Both the position numbers and the translations under genes were made by a program. Positions 407-61,917 of a stretch of 64,000 nucleotides of DNA are shown here, piece after piece. The notes below the pieces were generated by a model, which was given only the letters and a program-made list of their open reading frames with translations, was not told the DNA's origin and did no database searches. Every line of letters begins with the position of its first letter. Within the stretch, counting starts at the first letter, position 1. The stretch covers positions 283,052 through 347,051 of the forward strand of contig CAWDMZ010000002.1 of assembly GCA_963803555.1 (NCBI GenBank). The letters run 5' to 3'. The DNA comes from an uncultured Alphaproteobacteria bacterium. GTDB lineage: Bacteria; Pseudomonadota; Alphaproteobacteria; Micavibrionales; Micavibrionaceae.

Positions 407-2077
407 ATGAAACCAACTATTTTTCTAGTATTCTTACTTTCTGCCATCCTCTTCTTTTCTTGTAAAGAAGAGCCAGCACAACCTGGAGTAATTGCTGCTG
501 CAGACGATCAGCCCTTCTTTTGGGAAGCCGCAAATATGTATTTTCTTCTCACAGATAGATTCAGTAATGGCAATCAAACTAATGATGTTAACTTTGACAG
601 GGATAAAGAAACTGCTATACTCAGAGGATTTATGGGTGGTGATTTAAAAGGCCTTGCAGAAAAAATAGAAGAAGGGTATTTTACAGACCTAGGGATTAAT
701 GCGATATGGTTTACACCAGTGGTAGAGCAAGTACACGGAGCTGTAGATGAAGGGACGGGTGTTACTTACGGATACCACGGTTATTGGACGAAGGATTGGA
801 CGGCCCTAGATCCAAATTTTGGTACCCCCGAGGAGCTTGAAGAAGTAATAGATGCGGCGCACGAGAAAGGTATTCGTATCGTGATGGACGTGGTGCTCAA
901 TCATACTGGACCCGTCACAGAGGAAGACCCTTTCTGGGGCTCAGAATGGGCACGTGAAAATCCCAATTGTGCATTTTCTACCTATGAGAATACTACCGAG
1001 TGTAGTCTAGTGGAAAACCTACCGGACATACGTACGGAATCCGATCAAGAAGTAGAACTTCCTGAAAATCTTGTGGCTAAATGGAAAGAAGAAAATCGCT
1101 ACGATGAAGAGATGGAAGAACTCAACGATTATTTCACCTCAAACAATCTCAAAAGGACCCCACGCAACTATATCATAAAATGGCTTACAGATTATATCAG
1201 GGATTATGGCGTAGATGCTTTTAGAGTAGATACCACAAAGCACGTAGATGAAGCGTCGTGGGTAGCCCTAAGAGCCGCAGCAGATACTGCATTTCAGGAT
1301 TTTAAAGAAAATAACCCTAACAACATTTTGGATAGTAATGAATTCTTTATGTTCGGTGAGGTTTATAACTACTCCGTTGATGGAGGGAGGGAGTATGATT
1401 TTGGAGATCATAAAGTAGATTATTTTGCAAATGGTTTTGATAATCTTATTAATTTTCAATTTAAGTACGACGCTCAAAAATCGTATGAAGAACTTTTCTC
1501 AAAATATTCTGCGATAAATGATTCTGTTTTTAGAGGAAAGAGTTTTGTCAACTACGCCACCTCTCACGATGATGGTCAACCTTTTGACAAAGAACGTTCA
1601 AGAGCTAAGGAAACGGCAACCAAACTTTTGCTTACTACCGGAATCTCCCAAGTTTATTATGGCGATGAGACTGCTCGGGATTTAACAATAGAAGGGGCTA
1701 ATGGCGACGCTACCCTTCGTAGTTTTATGAACTGGGAAGAGCTAGAAAATAAGGACACTGCAGAAATTCTTGAACACTGGCAGAAATTAGGTCGCTTCCG
1801 ACGTGATCATCCATCTGTGGGGGCTGGAATACATACCAAACTAAGTGACGCTCCCTACATTATTGAAAGAAGCTATACCAATGGAACATTTGAAGACAAG
1901 GTGATTATAGGCCTTGACCTACCTGCTGGTAAAAAAGAGATTGAAGTGGGCTACGCTTTCGCGAAAGCGGAAAAACTCACAGACGCATATTCAGGACAGC
2001 AGGTGTCCGTAATAGATGGAAAGGTTATCTTAGATACGCCCTTCGATATTGTGCTCCTAGAGCGTGTACACGACTAA
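407..2077 (+). CDS. GH13 alpha-amylase, lipoprotein
   Basis: All four GH13 conserved regions are present: DVVLNHTG, GVDAFRVDTTKHV, FGEVYN, FVNYATSHD. The N-terminus LFFSC is an SPase-II lipobox. Confidence 0.9.
   Translation: MKPTIFLVFLLSAILFFSCKEEPAQPGVIAAADDQPFFWEAANMYFLLTDRFSNGNQTNDVNFDRDKETAILRGFMGGDLKGLAEKIEEGYFTDLGINAIWFTPVVEQVHGAVDEGTGVTYGYHGYWTKDWTALDPNFGTPEELEEVIDAAHEKGIRIVMDVVLNHTGPVTEEDPFWGSEWARENPNCAFSTYENTTECSLVENLPDIRTESDQEVELPENLVAKWKEENRYDEEMEELNDYFTSNNLKRTPRNYIIKWLTDYIRDYGVDAFRVDTTKHVDEASWVALRAAADTAFQDFKENNPNNILDSNEFFMFGEVYNYSVDGGREYDFGDHKVDYFANGFDNLINFQFKYDAQKSYEELFSKYSAINDSVFRGKSFVNYATSHDDGQPFDKERSRAKETATKLLLTTGISQVYYGDETARDLTIEGANGDATLRSFMNWEELENKDTAEILEHWQKLGRFRRDHPSVGAGIHTKLSDAPYIIERSYTNGTFEDKVIIGLDLPAGKKEIEVGYAFAKAEKLTDAYSGQQVSVIDGKVILDTPFDIVLLERVHD
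1954..1969. repeat. TTTCGCGAAA-core palindromic element, perfect 16-mer CGCTTTCGCGAAAGCG
   Basis: Perfect 16-nt palindrome inside the amylase CDS, translated YAFAKAE. Confidence 0.85.
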
Positions 2078-2079
2078 AA

Positions 2080-2613
2080 TTAAGAATTCAATGTCTCTAA
2101 AAAAGTAGCCAATACTCCGTTTACACCCATAAGCAGCAGCTTATTATTTATGGTATTGGACTGTAAATCAAAGTTATCATAAAATGAAGGAAAGCTAAAG
2201 CTCTCCACCACAGTCGCACCAAAATGTGGTAAGGTACCTTTCATATATTCTAGAGCTCTAGAGCCACCTCGAGTTCCTGGGGATGTGCTCAAAAGCAACA
2301 CCTTCTTATCCGCTAGGTAGTTTCTATCTGCCCGGGAAAGCCAATCCAGAATATTCTTAAAATGCGCCGAGATACTTCCATTGTGTTCATTCACTGCTAT
2401 TACGAGACCTCTATACTTAGAAAGCTGTTGTGCTAGATCCATTATTTCTGATGGTATCCCAATCTTTTCTTCTAGATCAATAGAATACATAGGATACTCC
2501 ATAAAATTCAGATCTATATGAGGAATTTTATCGCCTATCAACAATGTAATTGAATCCAAAAGCCTTTTATTAATAGACTTAGAGCTATTACTTCCGCAGA
2601 GTGTTGCTATCAT
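2080..2613 (-). CDS. NADPH-dependent FMN reductase family protein
   Basis: MIATLCGSNSSKSINKRLL...LVIAVNEHNGSISAHFKNILDWLSR...LLLSTSPGTRGG matches the flavodoxin-like FMN reductase pattern. I prefer the start at Met-18 (2613). The track start at 2664 would overlap the terminator hairpin of the upstream gene. Confidence 0.65.
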   Translation of the reverse strand: MIATLCGSNSSKSINKRLLDSITLLIGDKIPHIDLNFMEYPMYSIDLEEKIGIPSEIMDLAQQLSKYRGLVIAVNEHNGSISAHFKNILDWLSRADRNYLADKKVLLLSTSPGTRGGSRALEYMKGTLPHFGATVVESFSFPSFYDNFDLQSNTINNKLLLMGVNGVLATFLETLNS

Positions 2614-2628
2614 ATCATGTAAAAGTAG

Positions 2629-2660
2629 TAAAAACAAAAAAACCGCCATTGCGGCGGTTT
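2629..2660 (-). terminator. Rho-independent terminator after the 2680-4200 gene
   Basis: On the minus strand, the stem AACCGCC/GGCGGTT is followed by a T-run (plus strand aaaaacaaaaaaaccgccattgcggcggtt). Confidence 0.6.
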
Positions 2661-2679
2661 TCAAATACTATTGAAGGCT

Positions 2680-7137: not shown

Positions 7138-7140
7138 CAA

Positions 7141-10743: not shown

Positions 10744-10761
10744 GGCTTTCGCCAAAATTTT
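10744..10761. repeat. TTTCGCGAAA-core palindromic element, degenerate copy
   Basis: ggctttcgccaaaatttt, 9 nt after the icd stop. It is the reverse complement of the variant at 21700. Confidence 0.5.
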
Positions 10762-10906: not shown

Positions 10907-13298
10907 ATGAAAAGATCTATTTTATTGCTTTGCTTTTTCTGGGCAACGGCTCTTTTTTCTCAAGAAAAATTTACGCTAAGTGGCACGATAACAGACAGCA
11001 CTAGTAATGAAACCCTAATAGGAGTTAATATCCTTTTTCCTTCACTTTCTAATGGTGTTGTCACCAATTCTTACGGGTTCTACTCGATAACGCTTCCCGC
11101 TGGAACTTATGACGTGCAGTTGAGCTATCTGGGGTATGCAGACGTGACTCAAACCATTGATCTCTCGGAAAATATTAGGCGCAATTTCACACTGACACCC
11201 TCACTCGAAACTTTAGAAGAGGTAGTCATAGAAGAAAAAGTGGAACGGGTGAACATAAGAAAACCTCAAATGAGCGTTAACGCCCTTACGGCAGAATCGA
11301 TTAAGGACATTCCCGTGGTTTTAGGCGAAGCAGATGTTATTAAAGCAATCCTTCTTTTGCCCGGTGTAACAAGTGCAGGAGAGGGCGCTTCTGGTTTTAA
11401 TGTAAGGGGTGGTGCAGCAGATCAAAATTTGATCCTTCTCGATGAAGCGATTATTTTTAATAGCTCGCACCTTTTTGGATTTTTCTCGGTTTTTAATCCT
11501 GATGCGATAAAAGATCTAAAACTTTATAAAGGTGGGATTCCTGCAAGATACGGAGGTCGTGTTTCTTCTGTTCTGGATATCTATCAAAAAGAAGGGAATA
11601 GCAAGAGACTTAAAGTTACTGGAGGCATAGGCGCTGTATCGTCCAGGCTTCTTGTCGAAGGACCTATCATACAAGACAAAGCTGCTTTTTTAATAGGGGG
11701 TCGCGCATCTTATGCACATTTATTTTTACCATTGCTGGATATCGACAATATAGGCATATTTCTATGATCTGAATACAAAACTAAATTTCAAGCTCAACGA
11801 GAATAATAGTATTTACGTAAGTGGGTATTTTGGGAGGGATCTTTTTAGTATTCAGGATAGCTTCAAGAATATTTATGGCAACGCAGTAGGAAACCTCCGG
11901 TGGAACCACCTATTTTCTGACAAACTGTTTTCTAACGCATCCATAATTTATAGTGACTATTATTATGGGCTTGACCTTGACTTTGTAGGTTTTGAATGGA
12001 ATTCAGGTATCTCTAACCTGAATCTCAAGTATGACCTAACCTATTATCTTAATGATAAGATTAAAATTTATGGAGGTCTCAACAACCTTTCTTACGTCTT
12101 CAATCCAGGGAAGATACAGCCCAACGGTCCGGATTCGGGGATTGTAGAAGAGCAACTCACAAAGAAATATGCAAATGAGTTTGCCGCTTATATCGACATA
12201 GAGCATAAACTTACAGAAAACCTTGCTATTGAGTATGGGGTACGATATAGCAACTTTATACGCCAAGGGCAGGAAGAAATAAATGTTTATGGTAATAATG
12301 GAGAGAATTCCTTGCCGGTCTTTTTTGATCCCTTTCTTCTTATTTACAAAAGCTCTGATGTTTTTAATGTAGATACGTCAAGATCTTCCAGAAGTGATAA
12401 GCTCGCTACCTTTAATAATCTAGAGCCAAGAGTCTCTGCCTCTTACGCTTTTAATGACGATACCTCCATAAAAGGAAGCTATACCAGATTATCGCAATAC
12501 TTACATCTATTGTCTAATACCAGTTCGCCTACCCCTTTAGATATCTGGACCCCCAGTGGCCCTTTTGCAAAACCTCAATTACTGGATCAATATGCAATAG
12601 GCTATTTTAAAAACTTTAGAGCTGGAGAAAGGGAATATACTATAGAGACCGAGGCTTTTTATAAAGATATTGACGGTAGGATAGACTATATAGACGGGGC
12701 ACAACTTATTGCAAATGATGCTATAGAACAAGTAATACTTCAGGGAGAAGCTAGGGCATATGGCTTAGAATTTCTACTTCGTAAAAATGAAGGAAAGTTT
12801 AAAGGATTTCTAGCATATACCTTATCGAAGTCAGAACAACGTACACCTGGACGCAATGAGAATGAGCTGGGTATCAATAGAGGGCAATGGTACAATACCC
12901 CTTACGACAAAACCCACGATATCTCAATGAATGTAAGTTATGAATTGAGTGATAAATGGAAGTTTGGCAGTAATTTTTTATTCCAGACGGGACAACCCAC
13001 TAACTTTCCTGTAGGGCAATTTGAATTTCAAGGAATTACGATTCCTACGTATGGACCGAGAAATGAACAACGATTACCCTCCTATAATCGTCTGGACTTA
13101 AGTGCCACTCTTACACCAGAAGCAAATAAAACTCGTAAGTGGCAGTCTGAGTGGGTCTTTAGTATTTATAATGTTTACAATCGTCGTAATGCTGCCTCCA
13201 TCAACTTTAGGCAAAACGAAGAAACTGGAAATAATGAGGCTGTAAGGACGTCGATATTTGGAATTATCCCTTCTGTAACCTATAATTTTAAATTTTAA
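10907..13298 (+). pseudogene. TonB-dependent receptor (CarboxypepD_reg + plug + barrel) interrupted by one +1 frameshift near 11750-11756
   Basis: ORF 10907-11767 carries the signal peptide, carboxypeptidase-regulatory-like domain and plug, and ends ...LLDIDNIGIFL*. The next frame is open from 11754 (AYFYDLNTKLNF...) through 13298 and ends in the barrel terminus TYNFKF. Deleting one G of ataGGcat gives a continuous DIDNIAYFYDLN. Confidence 0.75.
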
Positions 13299-15070: not shown

Positions 15071-15079
15071 ATTTTTTAT

Positions 15080-15123
15080 GCTTTCGCGAAAATTTTAAAT
15101 CATATCAAATTTTCGCGAAAGCG
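15080..15123. repeat. Two inverted TTTCGCGAAA-core elements forming a long hairpin
   Basis: gctttcgcgaaaatttt - 11 nt - aaattttcgcgaaagc. The arms are about 16 bp and begin 10 nt after the stop at 15070. Confidence 0.8.
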
Positions 15124-21551: not shown

Positions 21552-21699
21552 TTGTCTTATTCTTTTAGAGGATTCAGCTAGCAAAAATAGGTAAATTTCT
21601 AAAGCTACATCTCCGCCTCAAATGCTTAAGATAGGATTTCATTATACTCCTTTATAAAGAGCGATTACAATAAAACTACATTTTGTGAGGTTAATTACA

Positions 21700-21713
21700 T
21701 TTTGGCGAAAGCC
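21700..21713. repeat. TTTCGCGAAA-core palindromic element, degenerate copy
   Basis: ttttggcgaaagcc, intergenic, 44 nt upstream of the ATG at 21757. Confidence 0.45.
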
Positions 21714-30232: not shown

Positions 30233-30238
30233 AAGAAC

Positions 30239-39395: not shown

Positions 39396-39415
39396 AAAAT
39401 TTTCGCGAAAGCGAA
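39396..39415. repeat. TTTCGCGAAA-core palindromic element
   Basis: aaaattttcgcgaaagcgaa, in the 42-nt gap between the ABC start and the TetR stop. Confidence 0.75.
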
Positions 39416-42722: not shown

Positions 42723-42864
42723 TCGCCCAGTTCTTTACAAACCATTAATTAAGTAGATAACAACAAAAGATCGCTGCAGAACCAGTTCTTAGGAGTAGTA
42801 AGCCCTATAAAGTTTCTGTTTACTGTTGAATCAATTCTCTATGCGATTGAGATGTAGGTTTTAA

Positions 42865-42881
42865 GCTTGCGCGAAAGCGAA
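42865..42881. repeat. TTTCGCGAAA-core palindromic element, degenerate copy
   Basis: gcttgcgcgaaagcgaa, intergenic, 34 nt beyond the response-regulator stop. Confidence 0.5.
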
Positions 42882-43640: not shown

Positions 43641-44692
43641 AACTCGAACTGTACTTTGAGTCCGCTAGGAAAGTTGTCTGATACCTTGAGAGAAGATTGA
43701 TACATTTTTTGCAAGCGTTTTTGTGTATTGCTTAATCCTACACCAAGATTGAAGATAGCTTCCTTATCGGCTACTCCTACTCCAGTATCGTTAATTTCGA
43801 AGATAAGTTTGTTATGCTCTTCGGTAATGATGATATCAATTTTTCCACCTTTTACTAAAGGTGAAATCCCATGTTTAATCGAGTTTTCTACCAGTGGCTG
43901 CAGGATCATAGGAGGAATTTCTCGCGAAAGCAACCTACTGGCCACCTGCATATTAATTTCCAACCGATCCTCAAACCGCTTCTGCTCAAGTTTAAGATAC
44001 TTATTTACAAATTCCAGCTCTTCTTCTAATGTTACAAGATCCTCCCTACTTGCTTTTAGTTGGTATCTAAAAAGATCTGAGAGCTCTGCAATCATCTCCC
44101 GTGTTTCTTCCATTTCCTTTGGAACGCTTGCATTAATGGTATTAAAAACATTGTATAAAAAATGCGGATTGAGCTGTGCTTTAATAGCACTCAACTCGCT
44201 TTTGAGCGCTGTATTCTTAAGCTCAATCTCGTATTGCAACTTGCGCTGATTGATGACATAGTGCTCATACGCGTGTATGAGCGCAAACTGTATCAAATAG
44301 ATAAGCGTGGGGATATAGATATCCCATACTTGAAAGGCTCCGCTCAAGTGGCCTAACGCTAGCAAATCACTAATTAAGTAATACACACGCCACGAAAAAA
44401 GCACAAACAAAGGAAGACCAATGATATGAAGTGCTAGTCGCTTTCCTAAAGACCACTGACTAAAAATCCGAAATATAAAAACCCAGATAATCCCAGTTCC
44501 AACAAGCATAATCCCATATTGCAGACCTGAATCATCAAACCAATTAGATGGAGTAAAGAGAACATCTTCCTCTCTCGTAAAACCTAAACGATTTATATAG
44601 AGGGTGATATGATAAATAAGGGACAGTATTAGGTATGTACCCAACAAAGCCCCTAATTCATACATCTTAATTCCGAAAATCTCTTTTTTCAT
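43637..44692 (-). CDS. LytS/YehU-type sensor histidine kinase (His_kinase + HATPase_c)
   Basis: Four or five TM helices, the H-box LNPHFLYNVFNTI, and N/G boxes (LVENSIKHG, DTGVG). It overlaps the RR start by 4 nt. Confidence 0.85.
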   Translation of the reverse strand: MKKEIFGIKMYELGALLGTYLILSLIYHITLYINRLGFTREEDVLFTPSNWFDDSGLQYGIMLVGTGIIWVFIFRIFSQWSLGKRLALHIIGLPLFVLFSWRVYYLISDLLALGHLSGAFQVWDIYIPTLIYLIQFALIHAYEHYVINQRKLQYEIELKNTALKSELSAIKAQLNPHFLYNVFNTINASVPKEMEETREMIAELSDLFRYQLKASREDLVTLEEELEFVNKYLKLEQKRFEDRLEINMQVASRLLSREIPPMILQPLVENSIKHGISPLVKGGKIDIIITEEHNKLIFEINDTGVGVADKEAIFNLGVGLSNTQKRLQKMYQSSLKVSDNFPSGLKVQFEL

Positions 44693-45568: not shown

Positions 45569-47960
45569 ATGAAATCTACCTATAAGCTTATCACAATTTT
45601 TATTCTTTTTTCCGCTTTCGCGAAAGCGCAAACACTTAAAGGCACCGTTCTAGATCAGAGCAAGGCGCCATTACCATTTGTAAACGTCATCTTGAATACT
45701 CCAAAAGGGGACCTTGTAAAAGCGACCACCACAAATGAAAAAGGAGCTTTTACAATCACAGAAATCAAGAATGGAACTTTCAATTTAAAAATCTCCTACG
45801 TGGGTTTTGAAACTGAAACACGAGAAATAATCATCGATAAAAGTCTTACAATTCAACCCGCTATCGTTCTCAAGCTGGCTACAGAATCTCTGGACGCCGT
45901 GACCATCGTTGCCGAAAAACCTATGATACAAGTAGAACCGGATAAAACTATTTTTAACGTGGCTGGTACCGTGAGCAGTGCAGGGCTTAATGGCTTAGAA
46001 TTATTACGTAAAGCTCCAGGTGTGCGCTTAGATAACAATAACAGTGTCATTGTTGAAGGTAAAACGGGCGTTCTTATTTATATAGATGGAAGACAGAGTT
46101 TTTTACAAGGAGATGATCTTACCGCATTTTTACAGTCCTTGCAAGCAGATACGATTGAGAGTATTGAAATTATCACACAACCCTCTTCTAAATACGATGC
46201 GGCGGGAAATGCAGGGATTATCAATATTAAACTTAAAAGAGAAAAAGGACTCGGAACTCGAGGTAGCGTATCTAGTACAGTAACCGTAGGTAATTTTGCT
46301 CGAACCAATAACGCTATCAATCTCACTAGCCGACTCAAAAATTGGAATATCTACGGCACTTATTCTAATTATCTAGGCCGCTCTACGGGATTTCTAGATC
46401 TCTACAGAATACAAGGAGATAAGATTTTTGATGCTCAAAACGATGCTGAGTACGATGGTTTTTCTAATAACTTTAGAACAGGTACAGATTACTACCTTTC
46501 TAAAAAAAGTACCCTAGGCGCGGTTGTTACCCTCAACCTCAACGATTCAGAATCGCGATCAACTAATAGAACATCCATCATCGACAGACAGACCAGCACG
46601 ATTGATAGTATCCTCCGTGCGCCCAATAGATCTAATACACATACCGTAAACTTCAATACAAATATAAATTACCGCTACCAAGACACCATTGGCACAAGTC
46701 TAAGTGCAGATCTGGATTATGGCCGTTACACTAGAGATCGCTTTAATAATCAGCCTAACTTGTATGTATCTCCAGAAGGCGAAATACTCAACGCAATCAT
46801 CACCTATCAAGAAACACCGATACTCATTGACATCTTTGCAACCAAAATAGATTATGAGCAAAAACTAGGTAAAGGAACTTTGGAAACAGGAGCTAAAGTA
46901 TCTCAAGTAATCACCGACAATAGCTTTAATTTTTTCGATGTTATAAATGATGTAAATCTGCTCAATACAAACCGCAGCAATCAATTTGAGTACCATGAGA
47001 ATATTTATGCGGGGTATCTTAAGTACCATACGAGTTTTGGTAAGTGGAAAATTCAAGGTGGATTCCGTGTAGAAAGTACCGATTCACAGGGCGATCTTAC
47101 CGCTACAGAAGAGGGTGAAAATGAGTCTGTAAGTCGTCTGTACACAAATCTATTTCCCTCCGCTGGGGTTGACATATCAGGCTGATCAAAAAAACTCACT
47201 CGCGCTTTCGTATAGCAGACGCATCCAGCGACCTAGTTATCAAGACCTCAACCCTTTCGAATATCAGCTTGATGAGTTGAGTTTCAGTAGAGGCAATCCG
47301 TTTTTACAACCTCAGTATACAGACAATTTTAAAATCTCTCATACCTATAAATACACCCTCACATCCAGTTTAAGTTACTCTTACGTTTCAGACTTTTTTG
47401 CGCGAGTTACGGAGGCTGTTGGTGAAAATAGAAATTTTTTAAGTACCCGTAATGTGGCAGATCAAGAAGTGTTTAATATGAGCATTTCATATCCCTTCAA
47501 GGTAAACGACTGGTGGCGTGCATATGCAAATATGTATGGATCCTTAACAACCTATATTGCTACAGATCCAGCATTTATATCCACCGCACAAGAGACCTTT
47601 GGCTTTTATGCTCAGAACACGTTTAGCCTACCTAAAAATTTTAAAGTGGAAATAAGCGGGTGGTACAGCAGCCCCTCCATTTGGGGTGGAACATATCAAA
47701 CCGAGAGCCTAGGCTCTCTGAACCTCGCCGTTCAAAAAACGTGGAAAAATTGGACGGGGAAAGTGACACTCAACGATGCATTGTATACTATTCCTTGGCG
47801 TGGTACAACTCAGTTTGGAGATCTATTTATAGACGGTCGAGGTGGAGGCGATAGTCGCAATATCAATTTTTACGTACAATACACCTTTGGAAATAAAGAA
47901 GTAAAAGATGCTGCCAAACGTAATGGAAGTCTTGAAGATGAAAAAGGGCGAATTGATTAA
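45569..47960 (+). pseudogene. TonB-dependent-receptor-like outer-membrane barrel (CarboxypepD_reg + plug + barrel) broken by an extra G in a G4 run
   Basis: ORF 45569-47185 ends ...LFPSAGVDISG*. ORF 47169-47960 begins (L)TYQADQKNSLALSYSRRIQRPSYQDLNPFEY. Deleting one G of GGGG (47165-47168) gives a continuous LFPSAGLTYQADQKNS. Confidence 0.75.
45613..45628. repeat. TTTCGCGAAA-core palindromic element, perfect 16-mer
   Basis: Inside the receptor signal peptide, read as SAFAKAQ (an AxA cleavage region). Confidence 0.85.
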
Positions 47961-47973
47961 AAAAAGAACTTTT

Positions 47974-47991
47974 ACGCTTTCGCGAAAATGC
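47974..47991. repeat. TTTCGCGAAA-core palindromic element
   Basis: acgctttcgcgaaaatgc, 14 nt after the stop at 47960. The 20-mer tacgctttcgcgaaaatgct is identical to the copy at 52838-52857. Confidence 0.75.
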
Positions 47992-49609: not shown

Positions 49610-51365
49610 CTAATAATTTGTAAACCTAGGTTCAAACCACAAAAAGCCCATTGCCAAAACGAAAGCGATCAAAAACCAAACTCGTGGTATTGGTATATTG
49701 ACGCCCTGATTACTAAATGTTTGGGCCCTGTCTCTGTTAAAATATTCCTCATTGGCTAACTGCTTTTCGTACGTACTTTTGGCTTTAAAAACAGCGCTAT
49801 CAGTAACAAAAAAAGAATAGTTATGCAATGAGTCCTGTTTTACCGATAGGGTATTCCACCCTTTTTCTTTAGGGTACACTGTAACTTCCCAAAGGTCATC
49901 TTGATGCAGATCATTTTTTATAGCGATGCGGATACTGTCGTTTAAATAAACATCAGGGGTTGGAATTTGAGTTTGAAAAATGATCGTAAATGGCTCATCC
50001 ACACGGGAGCGTTGCTGCGGTTCTTCCCAATCTACGAGTTGCTCGTCCCTTTTTGCAATCCCACTCAAAATTTCAGACCATATTGATTTGTAGAGTTGGT
50101 CCTGACCATCAAGCAACCATTGGTAGGTATTTTGAAAAAGAGCCGTTGCAATTTTACCATTATTTCTGATTGTTGCGGCGGCAAGAACATCATCATTTGT
50201 GGTTACTAATGGAACCAAAAGCGCATCTTCCTGGAAACGATAATCAAAGGTAGTGACCACCGCACGGGGCCAATTCACTAAAGAAATAGCATTATTATTT
50301 CTTGTAAACTCAAAATATGATTGCTTTCGCGAAAGCGTAAAAAATCCTCCGTCGGGCTGTATAAATACACCTAATCCTTGTTGCTCTACGCTCGATAGTA
50401 AAGCTGATCTAGACGTGCCTGTGAGACTGGAAAAAGAAGGAGTGTCTAAAATGACGATATCAAAAATCATCTAGATTCTGCTCTGTAAAGCCATAAATCG
50501 CACCTTGCGATCGATTAAAATTTTCAAACTTGTAGGTGTTGCTAGTTATTTGAGAACGCACTAAAACTTCAAAACCTTGCGCTGCTAGAAAGTTCTTAAG
50601 ATACTTGGTCTCAAAGGTTGGGAAATTATTTACGATCAATACACTTATGGGTTGCTTCTTTGAAACCTTTATAGGAATAGGATCGGCAGTGAGGATCCTA
50701 TCAAGAGTATCTGTAGTCACTAAGGTGTAGATAAAATTCCCAACAACATTTACCTCAGTTTTTAAGCTGGATACATGCTCTCCTTTAGCATCCATAATTA
50801 GTGAATCTCTCTTATTTCCGCCTGCGTCTTCCAGAAAAATCTTCGTCCCAACTTTTGCTTTTTTATAGAGACTTTTAACGATAAGAGAGTCGCCAGTGTT
50901 AAGGTTCTTTTCATACTGTAGCTTCACTATTCCTGATGGTAGCTGCGATGGGAGATACACTGTTTTCACTTCTTGAAACTGCCAGAGATCATAAGGCTCA
51001 ACACCATTCCCTAAAATGGTCAGTTCATTTATAGAATCTAAAACTGGTTGCAAATAGTGATTATGAACGTAAGGTATTTCCTTTAGATTCCTAGAGCGCT
51101 CTCTCAAACTATCCAGTTGTTCAGAATTATAATCTGATGTGATCAACACGCCTTTTCTACTCTTTATTTCTCCCTGTTGCGCCGGTCGCAGCACCATCAT
51201 CGCTAGTGTAAACACGGCAATAGCTGCAACTATTGATTTAAAAATGAACCGCTTCCAACCGCTCTGAGTGTACTCTTTCCATAAAAAAATGAGCCAAACA
51301 ACCACCGCTACCGTAGCAACGAGTGCGAGCCATTCACTATGTATGAAAGTCATATTATCGCTCAC
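49610..51365 (-). pseudogene. Membrane protein, last gene of the MoxR cluster, split by an extra T in a T5 run (coding strand)
   Basis: ORF 50460-51365 ends ...FTEQNLDDF*. ORF 49610-50470 starts MIFDIVILDTPSF. Removing one base of the A5 run at 50462-50466 gives a continuous QNLDDFDIVILDTPSF, about 586 aa, with TM helices at both ends. Confidence 0.65.
50322..50339. repeat. TTTCGCGAAA-core palindromic element (14-nt perfect palindrome)
   Basis: tgctttcgcgaaagcgta inside a CDS, read as TLSRKQ. Confidence 0.8.
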
Positions 51366-53598
51366 GCTGTTCTAATTCTTTGGTGAGTAGTTGCTTTAAT
51401 CTGCTTTCGTAAGATGATGCTTTTGAAGGGCTTTCAGCTTTAGCCGGCAGCGCTCTAAACAAACCGCTTTGCACAGACTTTAGGACTTCAAGTGCCTGCG
51501 CTTTTTCTTCAGTCAAGGTTTTTAAATTTTGTAAAGTTAGCAGATGCTTGCTGGGTTCATCTATGGCGATTTGTGCGAGCTCTTTTCCTGCTTTTACCAA
51601 TACGTCTTTATCCTCAGTATCTAATGCGCTATTATTTTGGATACGCTTCTCGAGTATCTCAATACTTAAACGCATATAACGGGCAGTATCTTCATGTTCT
51701 AAATCTGCTGTTTTATAAAAATTGTCAACCTCTTTAATATCACCAGTTAATCGCGTTTCTTCCTTAATGGGTGGAGGATCAAAACCGATACGGTGCACAT
51801 AAATACGGGAACTATTTTTAATCTCTTGGATCAATTTTAACGCGCTATACTGGTAGGGAAGGGAAGTTTTAGGATCACCAAGTCGCAAGTGTAGCTCACT
51901 ATCCCACATTTCCGCCATTGCCTGCTGCAACTTGTTTTTAAGTGATTCTGTAAAAAGGGTAGACTCCTCAGGATCATCGTGATTATGCATATATTCTTCA
52001 AAGGGAGATTTTTCCTCTTCCTCCCCTACTTCTTCCTCGTGAGCGTGATCTACGATGTTATGCTCATTCTCGTCATCGTGATCGTGACGAAAACCTGCCG
52101 TAGGATCCTCTGCATCAAAGTCTTCTGCCTCGGGAACCGAGACATTTATAGCGATCCCAGAATCATCCTCATCACCCATAAACTGCCCGTATTTTAAGCG
52201 TAAGGCCTTCTGGTCGAAGCCTAGATCATTGCTCTGAGACTTAAATTCCTTAACAGATAACTTTGAGCGCTCTTTAATGAGTTTCTCCGTGTCTATTATC
52301 AATTGTCGCTGGCTTCTAAAATAATCTGGCATCAAGTCTGCGCCCAGTGTTCCTTCTACCCCGAAGCCATTTGAAACAGTATCTTTTATTACCGCAAAGT
52401 ACGTCTCACTTCTGGCCACATTGGGATTAGGGTTTTTAAGATCAGAAGCCTCTACATAAAAATAGAGCTCATCACCAGCTTCCATTTGAAGCTGATCCAA
52501 ATTTATTTTTTTAGAAAGATTGACAGACAAGTCCCCCTGTCTAAAACTGGTATCAAAAGGAAGTCGCTCTTCTCTAAACTTCACAGACTCTCCAGAACCT
52601 TTGCTCACGGTAGCGATTATCTGTGCCGAAGCAATCCCAAAATCATCTGTGATCTGAGTATTGAACGACAGGTTTTTATCTTCGTCAACATCAAAAGAAG
52701 CAAACTGCGCTACGTCCTTCATCACAATCTCAGGATCCTGATCTTCAATTACTTCAATTGCATATAGGTCAGAAACATATGAGTAGTTTAAACTATCTGT
52801 AAATCTAAAATTATAATAGGCTGATGATTTTGGTGAATACGCTTTCGCGAAAATGCTCTTAGATTTCTCATCTAAAGCATTTTTAGAAACCTCCATAGCA
52901 AGCTCTTTATCCATCCCTTCTATACGTACTGAGTTTACCAATCCTTCAAATTCTAATTGCCACGATATACGAGACCCCTCCACCACCTTAACATTCATCG
53001 TAGCGCTCGTAAGAGTGCCTTTCCCTGTATAAGAAGGATATGTAATACGTAATGACTGATTTTTAAGTACCGGCGGATCATAAGCTGCGGTGACAGAATC
53101 TGCTGCTGTAAACCTGACCATTTCGGTAGCACCATTGCCAGGCTGTAAACCGTGAGCAATAGGTAAAACACCCATTTTAGAAAGTAGAAAACCAAAAAAA
53201 ACAAAGAGCATCGCAAGTACTACTGCCTTTTTGATCCCTGTCTGGGGTTGTAGAGATTTGGTCTGTTCTGAAAGCAACGTAGTCACCTTATCATATTGCA
53301 ACTGTGCTAATCCCGTAAGTTTATCTTGAGAGGCTAATGTGAGGCTTGAACTATATTCGGCAGCTGGTAAATGTTTATCAATATATGCTGCTGCGCGCGT
53401 TATCTGTATAGCCCAAGGTCTTAGAAGAAGAATCGCTACTATAAAAACGATTATAGAGACACTTAACGCAATTAAATAACTCTCCATCACAAACCAGCTC
53501 AATACTCCTAATCCTAAAGCATACAGTAACGCCTCCACTACCAGCATTAATTGCCAGCGCGTTTTAAATTGTTTTATAAAGTGCTTCCCTTCTTTCAT
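51355..53598 (-). CDS. Large membrane protein of the MoxR cluster (possibly DUF4175-like) with a His/Asp/Glu-rich segment
   Basis: ATG at 53598 (MKEGKHF) overlaps the upstream stop as TAATG. There are three or four N-terminal TM helices. An acidic segment reads HDHDDENEHNIVDHAHEEEVGEEEE..HNHDDPEE. The family name is from memory and uncertain. Confidence 0.55.
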   Translation of the reverse strand: MKEGKHFIKQFKTRWQLMLVVEALLYALGLGVLSWFVMESYLIALSVSIIVFIVAILLLRPWAIQITRAAAYIDKHLPAAEYSSSLTLASQDKLTGLAQLQYDKVTTLLSEQTKSLQPQTGIKKAVVLAMLFVFFGFLLSKMGVLPIAHGLQPGNGATEMVRFTAADSVTAAYDPPVLKNQSLRITYPSYTGKGTLTSATMNVKVVEGSRISWQLEFEGLVNSVRIEGMDKELAMEVSKNALDEKSKSIFAKAYSPKSSAYYNFRFTDSLNYSYVSDLYAIEVIEDQDPEIVMKDVAQFASFDVDEDKNLSFNTQITDDFGIASAQIIATVSKGSGESVKFREERLPFDTSFRQGDLSVNLSKKINLDQLQMEAGDELYFYVEASDLKNPNPNVARSETYFAVIKDTVSNGFGVEGTLGADLMPDYFRSQRQLIIDTEKLIKERSKLSVKEFKSQSNDLGFDQKALRLKYGQFMGDEDDSGIAINVSVPEAEDFDAEDPTAGFRHDHDDENEHNIVDHAHEEEVGEEEEKSPFEEYMHNHDDPEESTLFTESLKNKLQQAMAEMWDSELHLRLGDPKTSLPYQYSALKLIQEIKNSSRIYVHRIGFDPPPIKEETRLTGDIKEVDNFYKTADLEHEDTARYMRLSIEILEKRIQNNSALDTEDKDVLVKAGKELAQIAIDEPSKHLLTLQNLKTLTEEKAQALEVLKSVQSGLFRALPAKAESPSKASSYESRLKQLLTKELEQRER
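52839..52856. repeat. TTTCGCGAAA-core palindromic element
   Basis: acgctttcgcgaaaatgc inside a CDS, read as SIFAKAY. Confidence 0.75.
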
Positions 53599-54893
53599 TA
53601 TTGTTTTCTCAAACGCGCGATAAAGCGCTCGCCTATTAGTAAAATCACGAGCAGTATCCATAACCAGTGGTCAAAACTCACCTGCTCAGATTGTTGTATC
53701 TTTTTTTTTCCTAAAGTTACGTTTGGTTCCAGCTGTGCAATGTCCATTGACCGTTGGTCATAAATCATTGCGTCTCTTTTTACCTGTTTATCAAAGTCGA
53801 GCCATTGCAATAACTCTGAAGTAAAATCACCTTCAGTTATCGACTTTGATGTCAATACCTTTGTTAAGGAGCTCGTAGTTGCCTCAGGGAGGGAAACGAT
53901 ACTCTTTACGCTCAACTCATCTACAGCTCTAATGAGTGTTTTAGCCTTTGATTGAGGTACTTCTGAGTCACTCAGCCAGACCAGATAATCAGCATTTTTT
54001 GTATGATCATAGTTGTCTGGGGTAGCTCTAGTAATCTCAATTTTTTTATTAGTATACTCGGCGATGGCTCGTAAACTCGCTTCTATAAATACGCGTTGGG
54101 AATCATAAGCCTCCTCATAGATGAGCTGGGCTTTATATATTTCCTGTTCTTCTAAAGCTATCCACTTTTCCCTGTTATTGCTTTGTACTTTAATACTGTC
54201 ACCAGTGGTATTAATTTGAGCTTGTAGGTTTGATTTATTTTTATACGCTTTCGCAAAAGCGGACTCAAAACCATTACTTCTCAAGATAGTAAATTGCACA
54301 GTATCACCCATATCTACCGCTTGAACAATTTCTTCAAGTTCACTTTCTGATGGAATAACAACCCAATTTACATGGGTCTGAACATCTGGACGTTTGCCCT
54401 TAATTCCTGATTGTAACGCTTTTGTAAAGACTACTATACTATCACTTTGTAAGGTACTTAATTGCTGTGCAAGCTGCCAGTAATGTGAGATTTCAGTGGG
54501 TGGAGGGATTTCTTCGCTTTCTTCCCAAAGGGGAAAGCCTGCTGTAAATAATCTCCTCTTACCTTCAGGGATGTTGCTAAAACGGGCTATGGCGTCTTCG
54601 TCGGAAAGTAGGGAAGGTTCAAAAAGATACGTAATAGTTTCTCGCGAGCGACTTTTATCGAAGCGGGGCTGCGCTAGGATACATACTAATAAGCCAATTA
54701 ATAAACAACGCGTCACAAGCAACAGCCATTCATTTATCGCAATATTGTTTTGTTGCTGAGATTTGGTATCACTAATAAACTGTATGCTTCCTACCTTGAT
54801 AGTTTGTACCTTTTTCTTACTCCATAGATGAATGGCAATAGGAATGGCTAATGCCAGCAAGCCCAAAAGATATGATGGATTTAGAAAGCTCAT
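53598..54893 (-). CDS. BatA-N-terminal (aerotolerance-type double-TM) domain protein
   Basis: MSFLNPSYLLGLLALAIPIAIHLW...LLLVTRCLLIGLLVCILAQPRF matches the N-terminal double-transmembrane domain seen in BatA-like proteins. A C-terminal TM is present. I saw no vWA motif. Confidence 0.6.
   Translation of the reverse strand: MSFLNPSYLLGLLALAIPIAIHLWSKKKVQTIKVGSIQFISDTKSQQQNNIAINEWLLLVTRCLLIGLLVCILAQPRFDKSRSRETITYLFEPSLLSDEDAIARFSNIPEGKRRLFTAGFPLWEESEEIPPPTEISHYWQLAQQLSTLQSDSIVVFTKALQSGIKGKRPDVQTHVNWVVIPSESELEEIVQAVDMGDTVQFTILRSNGFESAFAKAYKNKSNLQAQINTTGDSIKVQSNNREKWIALEEQEIYKAQLIYEEAYDSQRVFIEASLRAIAEYTNKKIEITRATPDNYDHTKNADYLVWLSDSEVPQSKAKTLIRAVDELSVKSIVSLPEATTSSLTKVLTSKSITEGDFTSELLQWLDFDKQVKRDAMIYDQRSMDIAQLEPNVTLGKKKIQQSEQVSFDHWLWILLVILLIGERFIARLRKQ
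54244..54262. repeat. TTTCGCGAAA-core palindromic element, 1-mismatch copy
   Basis: tacgctttcgcaaaagcgg inside a CDS, read as SAFAKAY. Confidence 0.55.
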
Positions 54894-58183: not shown

Positions 58184-58193
58184 TACTCAATTT

Positions 58194-59968: not shown

Positions 59969-61603
59969 TTAAACGTTACGACCTGTATTGATCACATTGA
60001 TATCATTAAATCGTGTCGTGGAGCTCCCGTGTGATACTGCGCTCACTTGTGAAGGCTGTCCTTTCCCGTCGAAGAATGATCCGAACAAACGATAATCGTC
60101 CTTATCACATATTTTAGCACAAGAATTCCAGAATTCTTGCGTATTAGATTGGTAGGCTACGTCATTGAGCATTCCTACAATCTTTCCGTCTTTTATTTCA
60201 TAAAACATCGTACCGCCAAACTGGAAATTATAACGCTGCTGATCGATAGAGTACGACCCGCGACCTGCAATGTAAATTCCTTTCTCAACGTCTTTGATCA
60301 TATCCTTTACAGCATATGGTTCTTTCCCAGCTTCTAGCGAGATATTAGGCATACGTTGAAACTGTACATCATTCCAGCTCTGCGCATAACAACAACCGTG
60401 TGATTCGTTCTGGTCAATCATTTTTACTTGGTCACGTATCGCTTGATAATTTACAAGTACACCATCACGTATAATATCCCATTGCTTCGTTTTAACTCCT
60501 TCATCATCCCAGCCCACATTTCCTAAGGAACCTTCTTGCGTTTTATCTGCGACAATATTCACAATATCGCTACCGTATTTGAAGTCTCCAGACTTCCACT
60601 TATCTATAGTGGCAAAACTGGTTCCTGCATAATTTGCTTCATATCCTAAAACTCGGTCGAGCTCGGTAGGGTGGCCTACAGACTCGTGTATAGTGAGACC
60701 CAAGTGATTGGGCTCAAGCACAAGATCGTATTTACCAGCATCTACAGACTTTGCCGTAAGCATTTCTTTAGCTTGCTTAGCCGCCATTGTTGCATCTTCT
60801 ATGATGTCGTAACTCTTTCTGTATAGTCTTAATCCTTCTGGTCCTTCTAGTTTTTCTGATTCTAGACCATCTAGATATTCATACCCCATTCCCATAGGAG
60901 CGCTCATCGCATCCCTGGTTTTGAACTTTCCATCTGCAATGGCAGTGACACCAAACGTAGGCCAGATACGGTGCACATCTTGATCAATGTATGATCCTTC
61001 GGTGGAAGCAAAATACTTTTGCTCGTTTACCATAAAGAGCGCAGAATTTACAAAGTTTGCGCCGTTTGCTTGCGCTGCAGCATTTGCAGACAATAGTAAT
61101 TCTACTTTCTCTGAGACGGGTACTTCTTTAAAATCTTTTTTGATTGGCGTTTTCCAACTTACTTCGCCGTAGGAATCTACGGGAGCGAGCACCACTGGAT
61201 TCGTTTGGAATTTTGAATTCGCCTTTGCAATTGCAACCGCTTGTTCGGTTGCTTTCTTAATTCCGTCTGGAGTTACATCGTTTGTAGAGGCAAATCCCCA
61301 CGTACCATTTGCAATTACACGTACACCGATTCCAAATGACTCCGTATTCACTACGCCTTGTACTTTATCTTCTCTAGTGCGTACAAATTGGTTCAAATAT
61401 CTACCAATACGTGCATCAGCATAGGTGGCACCTAAGCTTTTTGCGGTATTGAGGGCAACATCTGCCATTTGTTTTTTCATAAGCACGTCCATTCCTGGCT
61501 CAAGGAGTGCCTCTGTCGGAATGTTATTTCCTAGCATCATCCCAGGCACCATAAGTGCTCCAGCTCCCAGACCTGCTAGTTGGACAAAATTTCTTCTTTT
61601 CAT
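59969..61603 (-). CDS. tldD: TldD-like metalloprotease with a twin-arginine signal peptide
   Basis: MKRRNFVQLAGLGAGALMVPG is a Tat motif. IHESVGHPTELDR is the TldD HExxxH metal site. Confidence 0.85.
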   Translation of the reverse strand: MKRRNFVQLAGLGAGALMVPGMMLGNNIPTEALLEPGMDVLMKKQMADVALNTAKSLGATYADARIGRYLNQFVRTREDKVQGVVNTESFGIGVRVIANGTWGFASTNDVTPDGIKKATEQAVAIAKANSKFQTNPVVLAPVDSYGEVSWKTPIKKDFKEVPVSEKVELLLSANAAAQANGANFVNSALFMVNEQKYFASTEGSYIDQDVHRIWPTFGVTAIADGKFKTRDAMSAPMGMGYEYLDGLESEKLEGPEGLRLYRKSYDIIEDATMAAKQAKEMLTAKSVDAGKYDLVLEPNHLGLTIHESVGHPTELDRVLGYEANYAGTSFATIDKWKSGDFKYGSDIVNIVADKTQEGSLGNVGWDDEGVKTKQWDIIRDGVLVNYQAIRDQVKMIDQNESHGCCYAQSWNDVQFQRMPNISLEAGKEPYAVKDMIKDVEKGIYIAGRGSYSIDQQRYNFQFGGTMFYEIKDGKIVGMLNDVAYQSNTQEFWNSCAKICDKDDYRLFGSFFDGKGQPSQVSAVSHGSSTTRFNDINVINTGRNV

Positions 61604-61710
61604 TGGTTTCGGTATTTGATTGACTGTTCTACAATTTACTGAAAAGAAACTATAAGGTTTTGTTAAAAAGATGTTAAGGATTAGAAGGGCCCTTTTTTAA
61701 AAATAATTCG

Positions 61711-61728
61711 TTCGCTTAACGCGAAAAT
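61711..61728. repeat. TTTCGCGAAA-core palindromic element, degenerate copy
   Basis: ttcgcttaacgcgaaaat, intergenic. Confidence 0.4.
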
Positions 61729-61900
61729 AGAAGCCAAATAGAGATCTCCCCAGACGATAAAGGAATTTAAATGTAAGCCCAGAGTGAGTTCTATTGAAGT
61801 TTACTAAATAGAAGTTTTTTCTAAAATTGAGGTGAAGTCACTTGTTTCATTCGAAAAATAAATTACCTAGAGATGACTACCTCTCTGAAATGCCAAATAC

Positions 61901-61917
61901 ATTTTCGCGAAAGCGTA
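61901..61917. repeat. TTTCGCGAAA-core palindromic element
   Basis: attttcgcgaaagcgta, intergenic, about 105 nt upstream of the ABC ATPase gene. Confidence 0.75.

Follow-up and report, generated by a model that had tools for sequence, protein, structure and literature searches.

A palindromic DNA word repeated throughout the genomes and phages of the Dokdonia clade of marine Flavobacteriaceae

What kind of element is the palindrome TTTCGCGAAA, which recurs in the spacers and inside the intact genes of a 64,000-nucleotide stretch of DNA (the whole stretch analysed, hereafter the window)? We found 12 perfect copies, at 1957, 15082, 15111, 23081, 27828, 37648, 39401, 45616, 47978, 50325, 52843, and 61903, exactly where an earlier sequence-only reading had placed them, and four of them extend to the perfect 16-mer CGCTTTCGCGAAAGCG (1954, 27825, 37645, and 45613), as it had also reported. 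Its estimate of well under one chance copy holds, with an expectation of 0.11 in dinucleotide shuffles and 0.06-0.17 under Markov models of orders 1-4; the counts far exceed every background model. The 16-mer occurs 10 times in the window with at most two mismatches (0.01-0.02 expected) and 15 times with at most three (0.11 expected), and the commonest 10-mer and the commonest 12-mers of the window all derive from the palindrome word. The 11 imperfect copies proposed earlier are all present, within 0-6 nt of where they had been put; at the 10-mer level, nine carry one mismatch and two (58547 and 61711) carry two. With an additional copy at 10794, absent from the earlier list, the one-mismatch 10-mers number 10 beyond the 12 perfect ones. 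The asymmetric intergenic variant CGCTTTCGCGAAAAT(T/G) is likewise real and was seen repeatedly. The sites in the window are as follows.

1954..1969: perfect 16-mer in the alpha-amylase gene (407..2077, + strand), reads AFAKA
10744..10759: near copy in intergenic DNA, 9 nt past the isocitrate dehydrogenase stop; its core TTTCGCCAAA has 1 mismatch
10791-10806: second weak copy beside the 10744 copy
15079..15123: inverted pair of asymmetric copies, TGCTTTCGCGAAAATT ... AATTTTCGCGAAAGCG, 8 nt past the stop at 15070
21698..21713: decayed copy CATTTTGGCGAAAGCC in the divergent region past an aminotransferase gene, probably intergenic; orthologous copies in Dokdonia PRO95 (L130:2593) and at L131:2069
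23078..23093: CGCTTTCGCGAAAATA in the Smr-domain gene (22662..23204, - strand), reads FRES; orthologous copies at L130:3988 and L131:3475
27825..27840: perfect 16-mer in rlmD, in the linker following the TRAM domain, reads LSRK
30238..30253: CATTTTCGCGTAAGCG in a convergent spacer, with the two stops 5 nt and 8 nt away; orthologous copy at L130:12611
32619..32634: near copy 29 nt past the stop of a DUF4268 gene, with the core TATCGCGAAA; a copy follows the same gene at L131:16088
36308..36323: CATTTTCGCGAAGGCG in the TolC-like OEP gene (34958..36364, - strand), within its signal-peptide region, reads FAFAKM
37645..37660: perfect 16-mer in the HlyD-family gene (36361..37716, - strand), close to its 5' end, reads AFAKA
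39398..39413: AATTTTCGCGAAAGCG between the TetR stop (11 nt) and the start of an ABC-transporter gene (15 nt)
42864..42879: AGCTTGCGCGAAAGCG in the spacer where the EcsC and LytTR response-regulator genes converge
43917..43932: near copy within the histidine kinase gene (43637..44692, - strand), with the core TCTCGCGAAA, reads LSRE
45613..45628: perfect 16-mer in the gene of the CarboxypepD_reg/OMP beta-barrel receptor (45569..47185, + strand), within its signal peptide, reads SAFAKAQ
47975..47990: CGCTTTCGCGAAAATG, 15 nt past the stop at 47960, most likely intergenic; the downstream gene probably starts near 48088
50322..50337: TGCTTTCGCGAAAGCG in gene 49610..50470 (- strand), reads LSRK; residues unrelated in relatives
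52840..52855: CGCTTTCGCGAAAATG in the 768-aa Bat-cluster gene (51355..53661, - strand), reads IFAKA; near-identical position and similar peptide context in L002 and L011, less exact in L008, L014, and L022
54246..54261: CGCTTTCGCAAAAGCG in BatA (53598..54893, - strand), reads AFAKA; same alignment column, without indel, in L002, L004, L005, L013, L018, L019, and L020
56961..56976: decayed copy CGCTTTTGCGAAAATC in the DUF4159-MoxR spacer; a perfect or slightly decayed copy in this spacer in nine examined relatives
61900..61915: CATTTTCGCGAAAGCG in the spacer that separates the divergent genes for TldD (59969..61603, - strand) and an ABC ATPase (62023, + strand)

The reading frames assigned earlier are correct for the AFAKA-type copies (the amylase, HlyD, the TolC-like gene, the 45569 receptor, BatA, and the 768-aa Bat-cluster protein), for LSRK (rlmD and the 49610 gene), and for FRES (Smr) and LSRE (the histidine kinase). 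About 60% of the copies are genic, and intergenic copies are several-fold enriched, many of them 4-30 nt past stop codons. The genic copies occupy weakly constrained protein segments in any frame, mostly as AFAKA, and are absent from the conserved genes MoxR, DUF58, TldD, and PmbA, and likewise from IDH and ProRS.

AFAKA occurs 37 times in the proteins of the clade, each time encoded by the word or a 1-nt variant; 394,000 aa of other genera contain none. The FAK codons are TTCGCGAAA in 41 of 81 cases, compared with 1.7% expected from codon usage. In the orthologue alignments, there are no indels, and genera without the word carry unrelated residues at its sites; relatives lacking the word do not conserve the peptides. 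At the rlmD site, TLSRKRT in the clade is replaced by LSDKRT, LSEKRT, or YSPKRT in other genera. One copy, in L051, sits in an 8-aa insertion. The alignments indicate that the copies were built in place through point substitutions, not inserted. All 18 BatA orthologues contain at least one copy, spread over three to four alignment columns, and four of the five sites in a 13-kb syntenic block are common to Dokdonia PRO95, where four-fold site identity is 0.376. Copies persist at orthologous sites long after synonymous saturation. The codon test, the orthologue alignments, and this retention despite saturated synonymous divergence together show that the word is maintained as DNA and not as peptide, which bears out the central proposal of the sequence-only reading.

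The word is a lineage trait of the Dokdonia clade of marine Flavobacteriaceae and no local oddity. Copies number 2-5 per 10 kb in each Dokdonia-clade locus examined. We counted 66 in the 250 kb of the 14 positive genome loci and 6 in another region, of 21 kb, from the genome of the isolate Dokdonia sp. PRO95, but none in 66 loci (1.30 Mb) from other Flavobacteriaceae genera. In a scan of marine metagenomes, the matches listed include at least 190 copies in at least 104 low-GC loci; among the same listed matches, high-GC loci show single copies only. The process extends to phages of these hosts: in two unrelated phage types, structural genes contain the word at a host-like density, and a related Winogradskyella phage has no copy. 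The density is about 1 copy per 3-5 kb, and the extrapolated number is 700-1000 copies per genome. Through point mutation, the word is iterated hundreds of times in Dokdonia-group genomes, and also in their phages, even where proteins change, and is the first "genome signature word" of the uptake-sequence or HIP1 kind seen in this phylum.

The full consensus is TA-CGC-TTTCGCGAAA-GCG-TA, with an almost invariant 10-bp core and softer outer arms; the outer six positions account for 105 of 123 mismatches, and compensatory arm changes are absent. The word lies in a two-fold symmetric context of ~50 bp, in which the 16-18 nt 5' of it on each strand are G/T-rich and C-poor. The flanks contain 6-10% C compared with 19%, for copies in all frames and in non-coding DNA, and the depletion is significant within the window itself (p = 1e-7). 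The same depletion is seen in the HK97-type siphoviruses, one of the two phage groups, whereas it is non-significant in the Mu-like phage (C 17%, p = 0.37). The clade-wide spread, the phage copies, and this symmetric flank skew had escaped the earlier reader. Outside the word, TCGCGA and CGCG show no avoidance in the window, which argues against active restriction.

We tentatively favor the explanation that the word is a tag of "self-DNA", read by a dimeric protein in DNA uptake or recombination, by analogy with the systems compared below. A two-fold symmetric, sequence-specific protein would read the duplex word, possibly through methylation of the inner TCGCGA/CGCG, and the word would mark DNA as "own" in DNA exchange, helping conspecific or broken DNA to be taken up and/or to recombine homologously. 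USS/DUS are established examples of such a role, and one has lately been suggested for cyanobacterial HIP1. The G/T-rich 5' tract on either strand would have the geometry of a RecA-loading zone, a Chi-like signal in both directions. Such a bias, combining molecular drive and selection, would create, improve, and preserve near-matches in the chromosome and in long-resident mobile DNA. HIP1 increases natural transformation in a Chi-like way that depends on methylation (bioRxiv 10.1101/2024.09.10.611283), and a role as an uptake sequence has been proposed for it (bioRxiv 10.64898/2026.06.24.733823); within the Flavobacteriales, Riemerella columbina shows natural competence with a preference for its own DNA (PMC7965970); and uptake sequences build up in mobile elements that co-evolve with their host (PMC7371117). 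Against the tag, the 64-kb window contains no reader protein, DNA methyltransferase, or competence gene, the copies in the window are spaced no more regularly than random, and the phage copies would fit a purely intracellular process equally well. We know of no competence, biased uptake, or methylation in Dokdonia, nor of any precedent for a 16-20 bp palindrome among uptake sequences or Chi sites, which are asymmetric and shorter than the word. In addition, the density of the word is below that of USS, DUS, or HIP1.

Elhai's model for HIP1 offers a less probable account, in which the word would be a functionless by-product of biased repair. An orphan methyltransferase on TCGCGA or CGCG, with coupled very-short-patch-type repair, would convert near-matches, so that the word would accumulate in all resident DNA. 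The palindromic word with its restriction-type core, the clustering of mismatches at the outer positions, as for HIP1 (PMC4390886), the gain of the word by temperate phages at host density, and the unavoided TCGCGA and CGCG beyond it are consistent with such a process. However, the conserved unit comprises 10-16 bp plus ~16 nt of skewed flank per side, and a C-to-T correction predicts no such skew because G is enriched too. Every BatA orthologue keeps at least one copy despite site turnover, which resembles selection for presence, and a methyltransferase was not found within the window. To our knowledge, no methyltransferase or Vsr target approaches that unit length.

Just as unlikely, in our estimate, is an array of binding or cleavage sites for an abundant two-fold symmetric chromosome protein with a role in folding or supercoiling and not in DNA exchange, such as a nucleoid-associated protein, a condensin-loading factor, or a type II topoisomerase with strong sites. 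A perfect palindrome of 16-20 bp with an invariant core is typical for the sites of dimeric proteins, the ~50 bp symmetric context suggests a larger footprint, the copies are preserved site by site, and phages replicating in the host might require the same sites. However, known architectural sites (parS, Noc, SlmA, and MatP) number tens per genome and are not known to rewrite proteins, whereas the extrapolated copy number is far higher and protein sequences are rewritten; the spacing in the window is irregular, and we know of no architectural site with a strand-specific keto flank skew.

A structure-based element, either a terminator or RNA-stability hairpin or an inserting miniature mobile element (REP/REPIN, MITE, or RPE-like), is very improbable. 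The intergenic enrichment, often just past stops, would suit it, as would the L051 insertion, the asymmetric intergenic variant, whose intact CGC arm mostly faces the upstream gene, and the inverted pair at 15079..15123, which forms a strong 47-nt hairpin directly past a gene (-17 kcal/mol as DNA, -21 as RNA, z about -5.3). The sequence-only reading had likened the word to REP elements and to the in-frame Rickettsia palindromic elements, and neither likeness survives the substitution origin without indels, the largely genic location, and the unrepeated flanks, whose complementarity (4.42 of 12) barely exceeds that of a composition-matched control (4.11). The DNA or RNA hairpin that it had also considered is disfavored, since the arms decay without compensation and the hairpins predicted for single copies are weak (-4 to -7 kcal/mol). 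Ordinary terminators in the window are long-stemmed and T-tailed, a lax terminator scan passes one copy only, and no copy has an Rfam match. As identities of the word, a MITE or REP element, a terminator, an RNA family, and a peptide motif were each rejected. Selection for the peptides AFAKA, LSRK, and FRES, or a k-mer composition artefact, is refuted by the Markov and shuffle expectations, the codon test with its rare codons, the orthologue alignments, and the presence of the word in three frames and in non-coding DNA, even though AFA suits the A-x-A signal-peptidase motif, several copies lie within signal peptides, and the L, S, K, and R residues of RlmD are conserved beyond the clade.

The closest analogues of the word are cyanobacterial HIP1 and the USS/DUS uptake sequences. 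HIP1 (GCGATCGC) is likewise a GC-rich, lineage-specific palindrome that is hyper-abundant although the genome is ordinary in other respects, occurs in all frames and between genes, arises by substitution, and contains a restriction/methylation-type inner site. It is also conserved beyond codon and amino-acid constraints (PMC5861425), with deviations concentrated at its outer positions (PMC4390886). Compared with HIP1, the word differs in sequence and phylum, has a longer conserved unit, with skewed flanks around a 16-20 bp palindrome whose core spans 10 bp, and has a narrower range, roughly a genus instead of a phylum. The analogy with USS (Pasteurellaceae) and DUS (Neisseriaceae), drawn already in the sequence-only reading, fits well: like the word, both are clade-specific, number hundreds of copies or more, arise through substitutions where coding sequence is weakly constrained, with some frames preferred, are enriched between genes, sometimes as inverted pairs past genes, share orthologous sites between species, and are gained by long-resident mobile elements (PMC7371117); USS, like the word, also has an extended compositional context. 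However, USS and DUS are asymmetric 9-12-mers with a pilus-associated receptor and are defined by biased uptake, whereas the word is a perfect palindrome. We know of no type IV pilus system of the USS/DUS-reading kind in Flavobacteriaceae. REP/REPIN, MITEs, and Rickettsia palindromic elements are also short palindromic repeats scattered over genomes, the last of these also within intact genes, but they spread by insertion, measure 20-150 bp, and are conserved over their full length; REP is strictly extragenic, whereas the word is mostly genic, without indels or repeated flanks. Similar to the word, Chi is over-represented, taxon-specific, found inside genes and in the phages of its host, and accompanied by G/T-rich sequence on its 5' side, where RecA would be loaded; the density of Chi in E. 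coli, about 1 per 4-5 kb, is of the same order. In contrast, Chi is an asymmetric signal of 5-8 nt, read as single-stranded DNA and co-oriented with replication, whereas the word, a palindrome of 10-16 bp, would work from both sides.

The 10-bp palindrome TTTCGCGAAA, hereafter the word, occurs in 12 exact copies in the window, against a mean of 0.11 in dinucleotide-preserving shuffles, none of which came close, and 0.06-0.17 copies expected under Markov models of orders 1-4. The 16-mer CGCTTTCGCGAAAGCG, which adds CGC and GCG arms, is present in four perfect copies, and 15 sites match it with at most three mismatches, compared with 0.11 in Markov-2 simulations. The top 10-mer and the top 12-mers of the window all come from the word. 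These shuffle, Markov, and simulation expectations rule out chance or k-mer background as its source. The sequence-only reading had already placed the 12 exact copies and judged them above background; the recount found each at the same position, together with all of the near-copies of that reading, an extra one at 10794, and the same reading frames for the copies inside genes.

The window has a G+C content of ~39%, and the genes it carries serve common housekeeping and envelope functions. Neither a DNA methyltransferase nor a competence gene lies within it, which excludes local genes as the cause of the word.

Features of the window mentioned in the text
7066-7256 and 7664-7691: two tandem tRNA-Glu(TTC) genes, 46 nt apart, then rpsT, an L19-Flavobacteria ribosomal leader (Rfam RF03130), and rplS
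10907..11767 (plug) and 12312..13298 (barrel): TonB-dependent receptor, split
27608..29038: rlmD ORF, with a TTG start
40724-40760: intergenic heptamer tandem repeat, CCTGCCT x 5.3, 96% matches
45569..47185 and 47169..47960: OMP_b-brl_3 receptor, split (profile positions 4-165 and 166-408)
50460..51365 and 49610..50470: two ORFs, corresponding to one ~583-aa gene in relatives
57881-58526: HigB-like toxin and HTH antitoxin pair, between DUF4159 and PmbA

Three genes appear split in the window, either as real pseudogenes or through assembly frameshift errors. The HigB-like/HTH pair is missing from the same spacer of the relatives examined (e.g., the fetched locus L002) and therefore looks like a small inserted module. 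The CCTGCCT repeat could be a slippage-prone tract.

The distribution of the word was surveyed in 80 loci around BatA homologues, taken from species-representative genomes, with ORFs called by a simple procedure of our own. All 14 Dokdonia-labelled or closely related loci carry it, with 66 copies in 250 kb, although many of the fetched loci are mutually orthologous and the counts are thus non-independent, which the metagenome sample remedies in part. The density is 2-5 copies per 10 kb in all of these clade loci, where the word is usually the commonest 10-mer, and three metagenomic relatives show an equal density. In the isolate Dokdonia sp. PRO95, whose RlmD shares 84% identity with the window's, a second region of the genome contains six copies in 21 kb. 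In contrast, the word is absent from the other 66 loci (1.30 Mb), which come from Aquimarina, Maribacter, Flagellimonas/Muricauda, Gillisia, Leeuwenhoekiella, Saonia, Salegentibacter, and others. Among the metagenome matches to the 16-mer that were listed, at least 104 low-G+C marine loci hold 190 copies, in a sample in which each locus was selected for one perfect copy, and at least 16 high-G+C loci hold a single copy each, as chance predicts. The word is a lineage trait of the Dokdonia clade, and by extrapolation a ~3.3-Mb genome would hold roughly 700-1000 copies. No clear analogous palindrome was found in the 66 negative loci. Three loci (L048, L060, and L075, from a Flavobacteriales MAG, Antarcticibacterium, and Gillisia) contain the palindrome AAGATCTT 6-8 times per ~21 kb, and this may be another over-represented palindrome of a different lineage.

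Across 105 sites, 105 of the 123 mismatches fall in the outer three positions of either arm, and the 10-bp core is near-invariant. TA is preferred immediately beyond the arms, giving the 20-mer TACGCTTTCGCGAAAGCGTA. Beyond the TA, the flanks are not repeated between copies, so the word is not part of a longer element. The flanks are nevertheless skewed in composition: in the 16-18 nt 5' of the word on each strand, C accounts for 6-10% compared with 19% at random positions, and G and T are enriched. This skew is seen in all three reading frames and in non-coding copies, lies on both sides relative to the sense strand of the gene, and is present at the window's own sites (p = 1e-7). The unit is therefore ~50 bp long and two-fold symmetric, consisting of a G/T-rich tract, the palindrome, and an A/C-rich tract. 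Complementarity between the left and right flanks hardly exceeds that of a composition-matched control (4.42 vs 4.11 of 12), which rules out a longer hidden hairpin and indicates that the skew encodes no longer stem. An inverted pair at 15079-15123, situated 8 nt past a stop codon, folds into a hairpin of -17 to -21 kcal/mol. Paired uptake sequences occur after genes in Neisseria and Haemophilus, and the inverted pair resembles them. Hairpins of other kinds were also observed in the relatives. Two Dokdonia isolates (L008:7297-7900 and L009:7050-7970) contain 4-5 tandem copies of a different REP-like hairpin, ...aaaagttCCCCTCTTCGAAGAGGGGttagggga..., spaced ~150-230 bp apart and all within one intergenic region, and L002 has two copies of a related hairpin, CCCTTCGAAGGG.

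Genic copies of the word were created in place by substitution and not by insertion, as the orthologue alignments of BatA and RlmD demonstrate; none changes the length of the protein except in L051. The word spells AFAKA, LSRK, or RFRES according to frame, with a ranking of AFAKA > RFRES ≈ LSRK. At the position of the window's AFAKA site in BatA, several relatives have AFAKA or AFAK-x and word-negative genera have unrelated residues. Many relatives share a second site, x-AFAKA-x-KGKRP, that the window lacks, and in two distant clade members an LSRK copy sits at another place in the protein. All 18 BatA orthologues carry at least one copy, distributed over 3-4 different alignment columns. Similarly, RlmD reads TLSRKRT in the clade versus LSDKRT, LSEKRT, or YSPKRT in other genera. 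One BatA homologue (L051:10725) has its LSRK copy within an 8-aa insertion, GGSTLSRK, lacking in all other BatA orthologues; this is the sole copy seen in an indel.

The word is maintained at the DNA level. In 106,000 aa of clade proteins there are 37 instances of AFAKA, every one of them spelled by the word or by a variant one base away; the 394,000 aa from other genera contain none. The codons of FAK are TTCGCGAAA in 41 of 81 clade cases, versus 1.7% expected from codon usage, and in 0 of 77 cases outside the clade. We regard this codon test as decisive in ruling out peptide selection; together with the unrelated residues in word-negative genera, it bears out the proposal of the sequence-only reading that the word is kept as DNA rather than as peptide. 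A peptide or chance explanation has next to no probability. The proteins carrying copies are fast-evolving, or the copies occupy linkers and signal peptides; the highly conserved MoxR, DUF58, TldD, and PmbA genes have none, nor do IDH and ProRS of the window. About 40% of copies lie outside long ORFs, in a fraction that makes up only 10-19% of the DNA. Between the window and PRO95, four-fold degenerate sites are saturated (37.6% identity), and in a 13-kb syntenic block four of the five sites, two of them intergenic, are at the orthologous place, albeit in a small sample. The word is thus retained while the flanking codons diverge, which requires continuing DNA-level selection or drive. As judged from these alignments, it is conserved between genomes beyond what codon usage and amino-acid constraint would give.

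Several known classes of element are ruled out. REP/REPIN elements and MITEs are extragenic, spread by insertion, and conserve their full-length sequence, and Rickettsia palindromic elements are in-frame insertions of 100-150 bp. A MITE, REP, or mobile miniature element is excluded by the indel-free orthologue alignments, the unrelated flanks, and the ~60% of copies that are genic, and the Rickettsia type by substitution without length change, bar the 8 aa in L051; both analogies, which the sequence-only reading had raised, were hence abandoned. The word is not an intrinsic terminator, since a lax scan accepts just one copy and the folding energies of single copies are no stronger than -4 to -7 kcal/mol; the real terminators of the window are other hairpins, with ordinary long stems and T-tails. 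Rfam has no match at any copy, which excludes a known RNA family. A restriction target under avoidance is likewise excluded: as noted early on, the word is enriched despite its CGCG/TCGCGA core, and TCGCGA and CGCG outside it are at background in the window.

Phages of these hosts also carry the word. The 16-mer is rare among 2.9 million viral contigs: it is found in only 42 stretches, concentrated in a few contigs. A Mu-like myovirus, recognizable by its portal, terminase, protease, capsid, sheath, and baseplate genes, has seven copies in 28 kb, some of them within the portal and terminase genes, whereas its nearest isolated relative, Winogradskyella phage Peternella_1, has zero copies in 39.6 kb. 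The copy in the terminase gene arose by substitution (HIAFAKAV vs HLKAAKQT in Peternella_1). A group of HK97-type siphoviruses has 3-4 copies per 12-20 kb, with the flank skew, which is not significant in the Mu-like phage. The force thus acts on resident mobile DNA too. The phage copies use the three reading frames more evenly than host genes do. Multi-copy IMG/VR contigs (among L093-L128) include UViG_3300040781_000495, 3300036669_000050, 3300038696_000259, and 3300039191_000376, and their several copies could assign these uncultured phages to Dokdonia-clade hosts.

The perfect palindrome and invariant core point to a dimeric protein that reads duplex DNA. By analogy, we tentatively favor a "self-DNA" tag in DNA uptake and/or recombination, a reading that is quite possible if short of probable; it is favored by the genome-wide pattern, the reports on HIP1 transformation, and competence in Flavobacteriales. 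The pattern would match that of uptake sequences and HIP1 in its clade specificity, its weakly constrained coding segments with preferred frames, its intergenic enrichment, its sharing between species, and its acquisition by resident mobile elements. RecA prefers G/T-rich DNA, and if a helicase-nuclease were halted at the word from either direction, RecA would load on the 5' G/T-rich tract. More doubtfully, the ~50-bp unit may be a two-fold symmetric, bidirectional DNA-exchange signal, a palindromic hybrid of uptake sequence and Chi. A dimeric reader, possibly methylation-dependent, would recognize the duplex palindrome, and the strand with its 3' end at the site would offer the G/T-rich tract for RecA/DprA loading. 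Such a signal, if true, would be the first in Bacteroidota, strong enough to rewrite proteins and copied by the clade's phages.

A methylation-linked repair drive, in which the word would be functionless, is unlikely; phage carriage alone cannot separate the models, because prophages and ICEs gather uptake sequences while co-evolving with their host (PMC7371117). An array of architectural or topoisomerase sites is improbable to the same degree; regular spacing of the copies in the window is not significant (CV of inter-copy distances 0.66-1.16), the sole nominal p value of 0.04 arising only when likely chance matches were counted in. A structure-based element is very improbable, and the fixed core sequence, together with uncompensated decay of the arms, makes a hairpin-only requirement unlikely. 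What probability remains belongs to an explanation of a kind so far unconceived.

Very few groups, namely Pasteurellaceae, Neisseriaceae, and cyanobacteria, are known to have lineage-specific hyper-abundant DNA words. Our literature search found no paper with the word in this context, nor with an iterated palindrome or uptake sequence in Flavobacteriaceae. Dokdonia, a culturable marine member of this family, offers a sharply bounded and tractable new system for the function of such words, and the on/off boundary between sister genera permits phyletic profiling for a putative reader protein. Should the word promote uptake or recombination, constructs that carry it could render these genetically difficult, ecologically important bacteria transformable, a gain just reported for HIP1. 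The word also exemplifies proteomes shaped by a DNA-level force, as AFAKA is present in clade proteins solely through it, and is a simple marker for contig binning and for assigning uncultured phages to hosts of the clade.

HIP1 is, to our knowledge, the sole other palindromic case among such words. Like this HIP-type palindrome, the Dokdonia word is far above k-mer expectation in the window, clade loci, and metagenome contigs, is coding (in all frames) as well as non-coding, and is made by substitution, but HIP1 proper is GCGATCGC and belongs to cyanobacteria, and thus differs in sequence and phylum. Cognate orphan DNA methyltransferases that modify the inner sequence are a further mark of the HIP type, and the window holds no DNA methyltransferase. 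HIP1 (background in PMC4390886 and PMC5861425) was recently reported to raise natural transformation in a methylation-dependent, Chi-like manner (bioRxiv 10.1101/2024.09.10.611283), and a role as an uptake sequence is proposed for it (bioRxiv 10.64898/2026.06.24.733823). In the Flavobacteriales, Riemerella columbina is naturally competent and prefers its own DNA (PMC7965970). The USS and DUS, which mark DNA for preferential uptake by competent cells, share with the Dokdonia word clade-specific hyper-abundance, weakly constrained in-gene segments, and preferred frames, and the early analogy to them agrees with clade specificity, placement, and frames, uptake itself being suggested by analogy; however, their cores are asymmetric and 9-12 nt long, whereas the Dokdonia core is a perfect palindrome. 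Chi, which stimulates RecBCD/AddAB-dependent recombination, is short, asymmetric, and replication-oriented, while the Dokdonia word is palindromic and 10-16 bp long, so that orientation bias is inapplicable. The parS/Noc sites are 16-bp palindromes with ~10-70 copies per genome in a chromosome-scale pattern; the Dokdonia word is similar in palindrome length but differs in sequence, half-site spacing, and density (~1 per 3-5 kb). The kind of word is therefore already known from HIP1, USS, DUS, and Chi, and what is new is the phylum, the longer palindromic word, the symmetric skewed context, and the documented carriage by phages.
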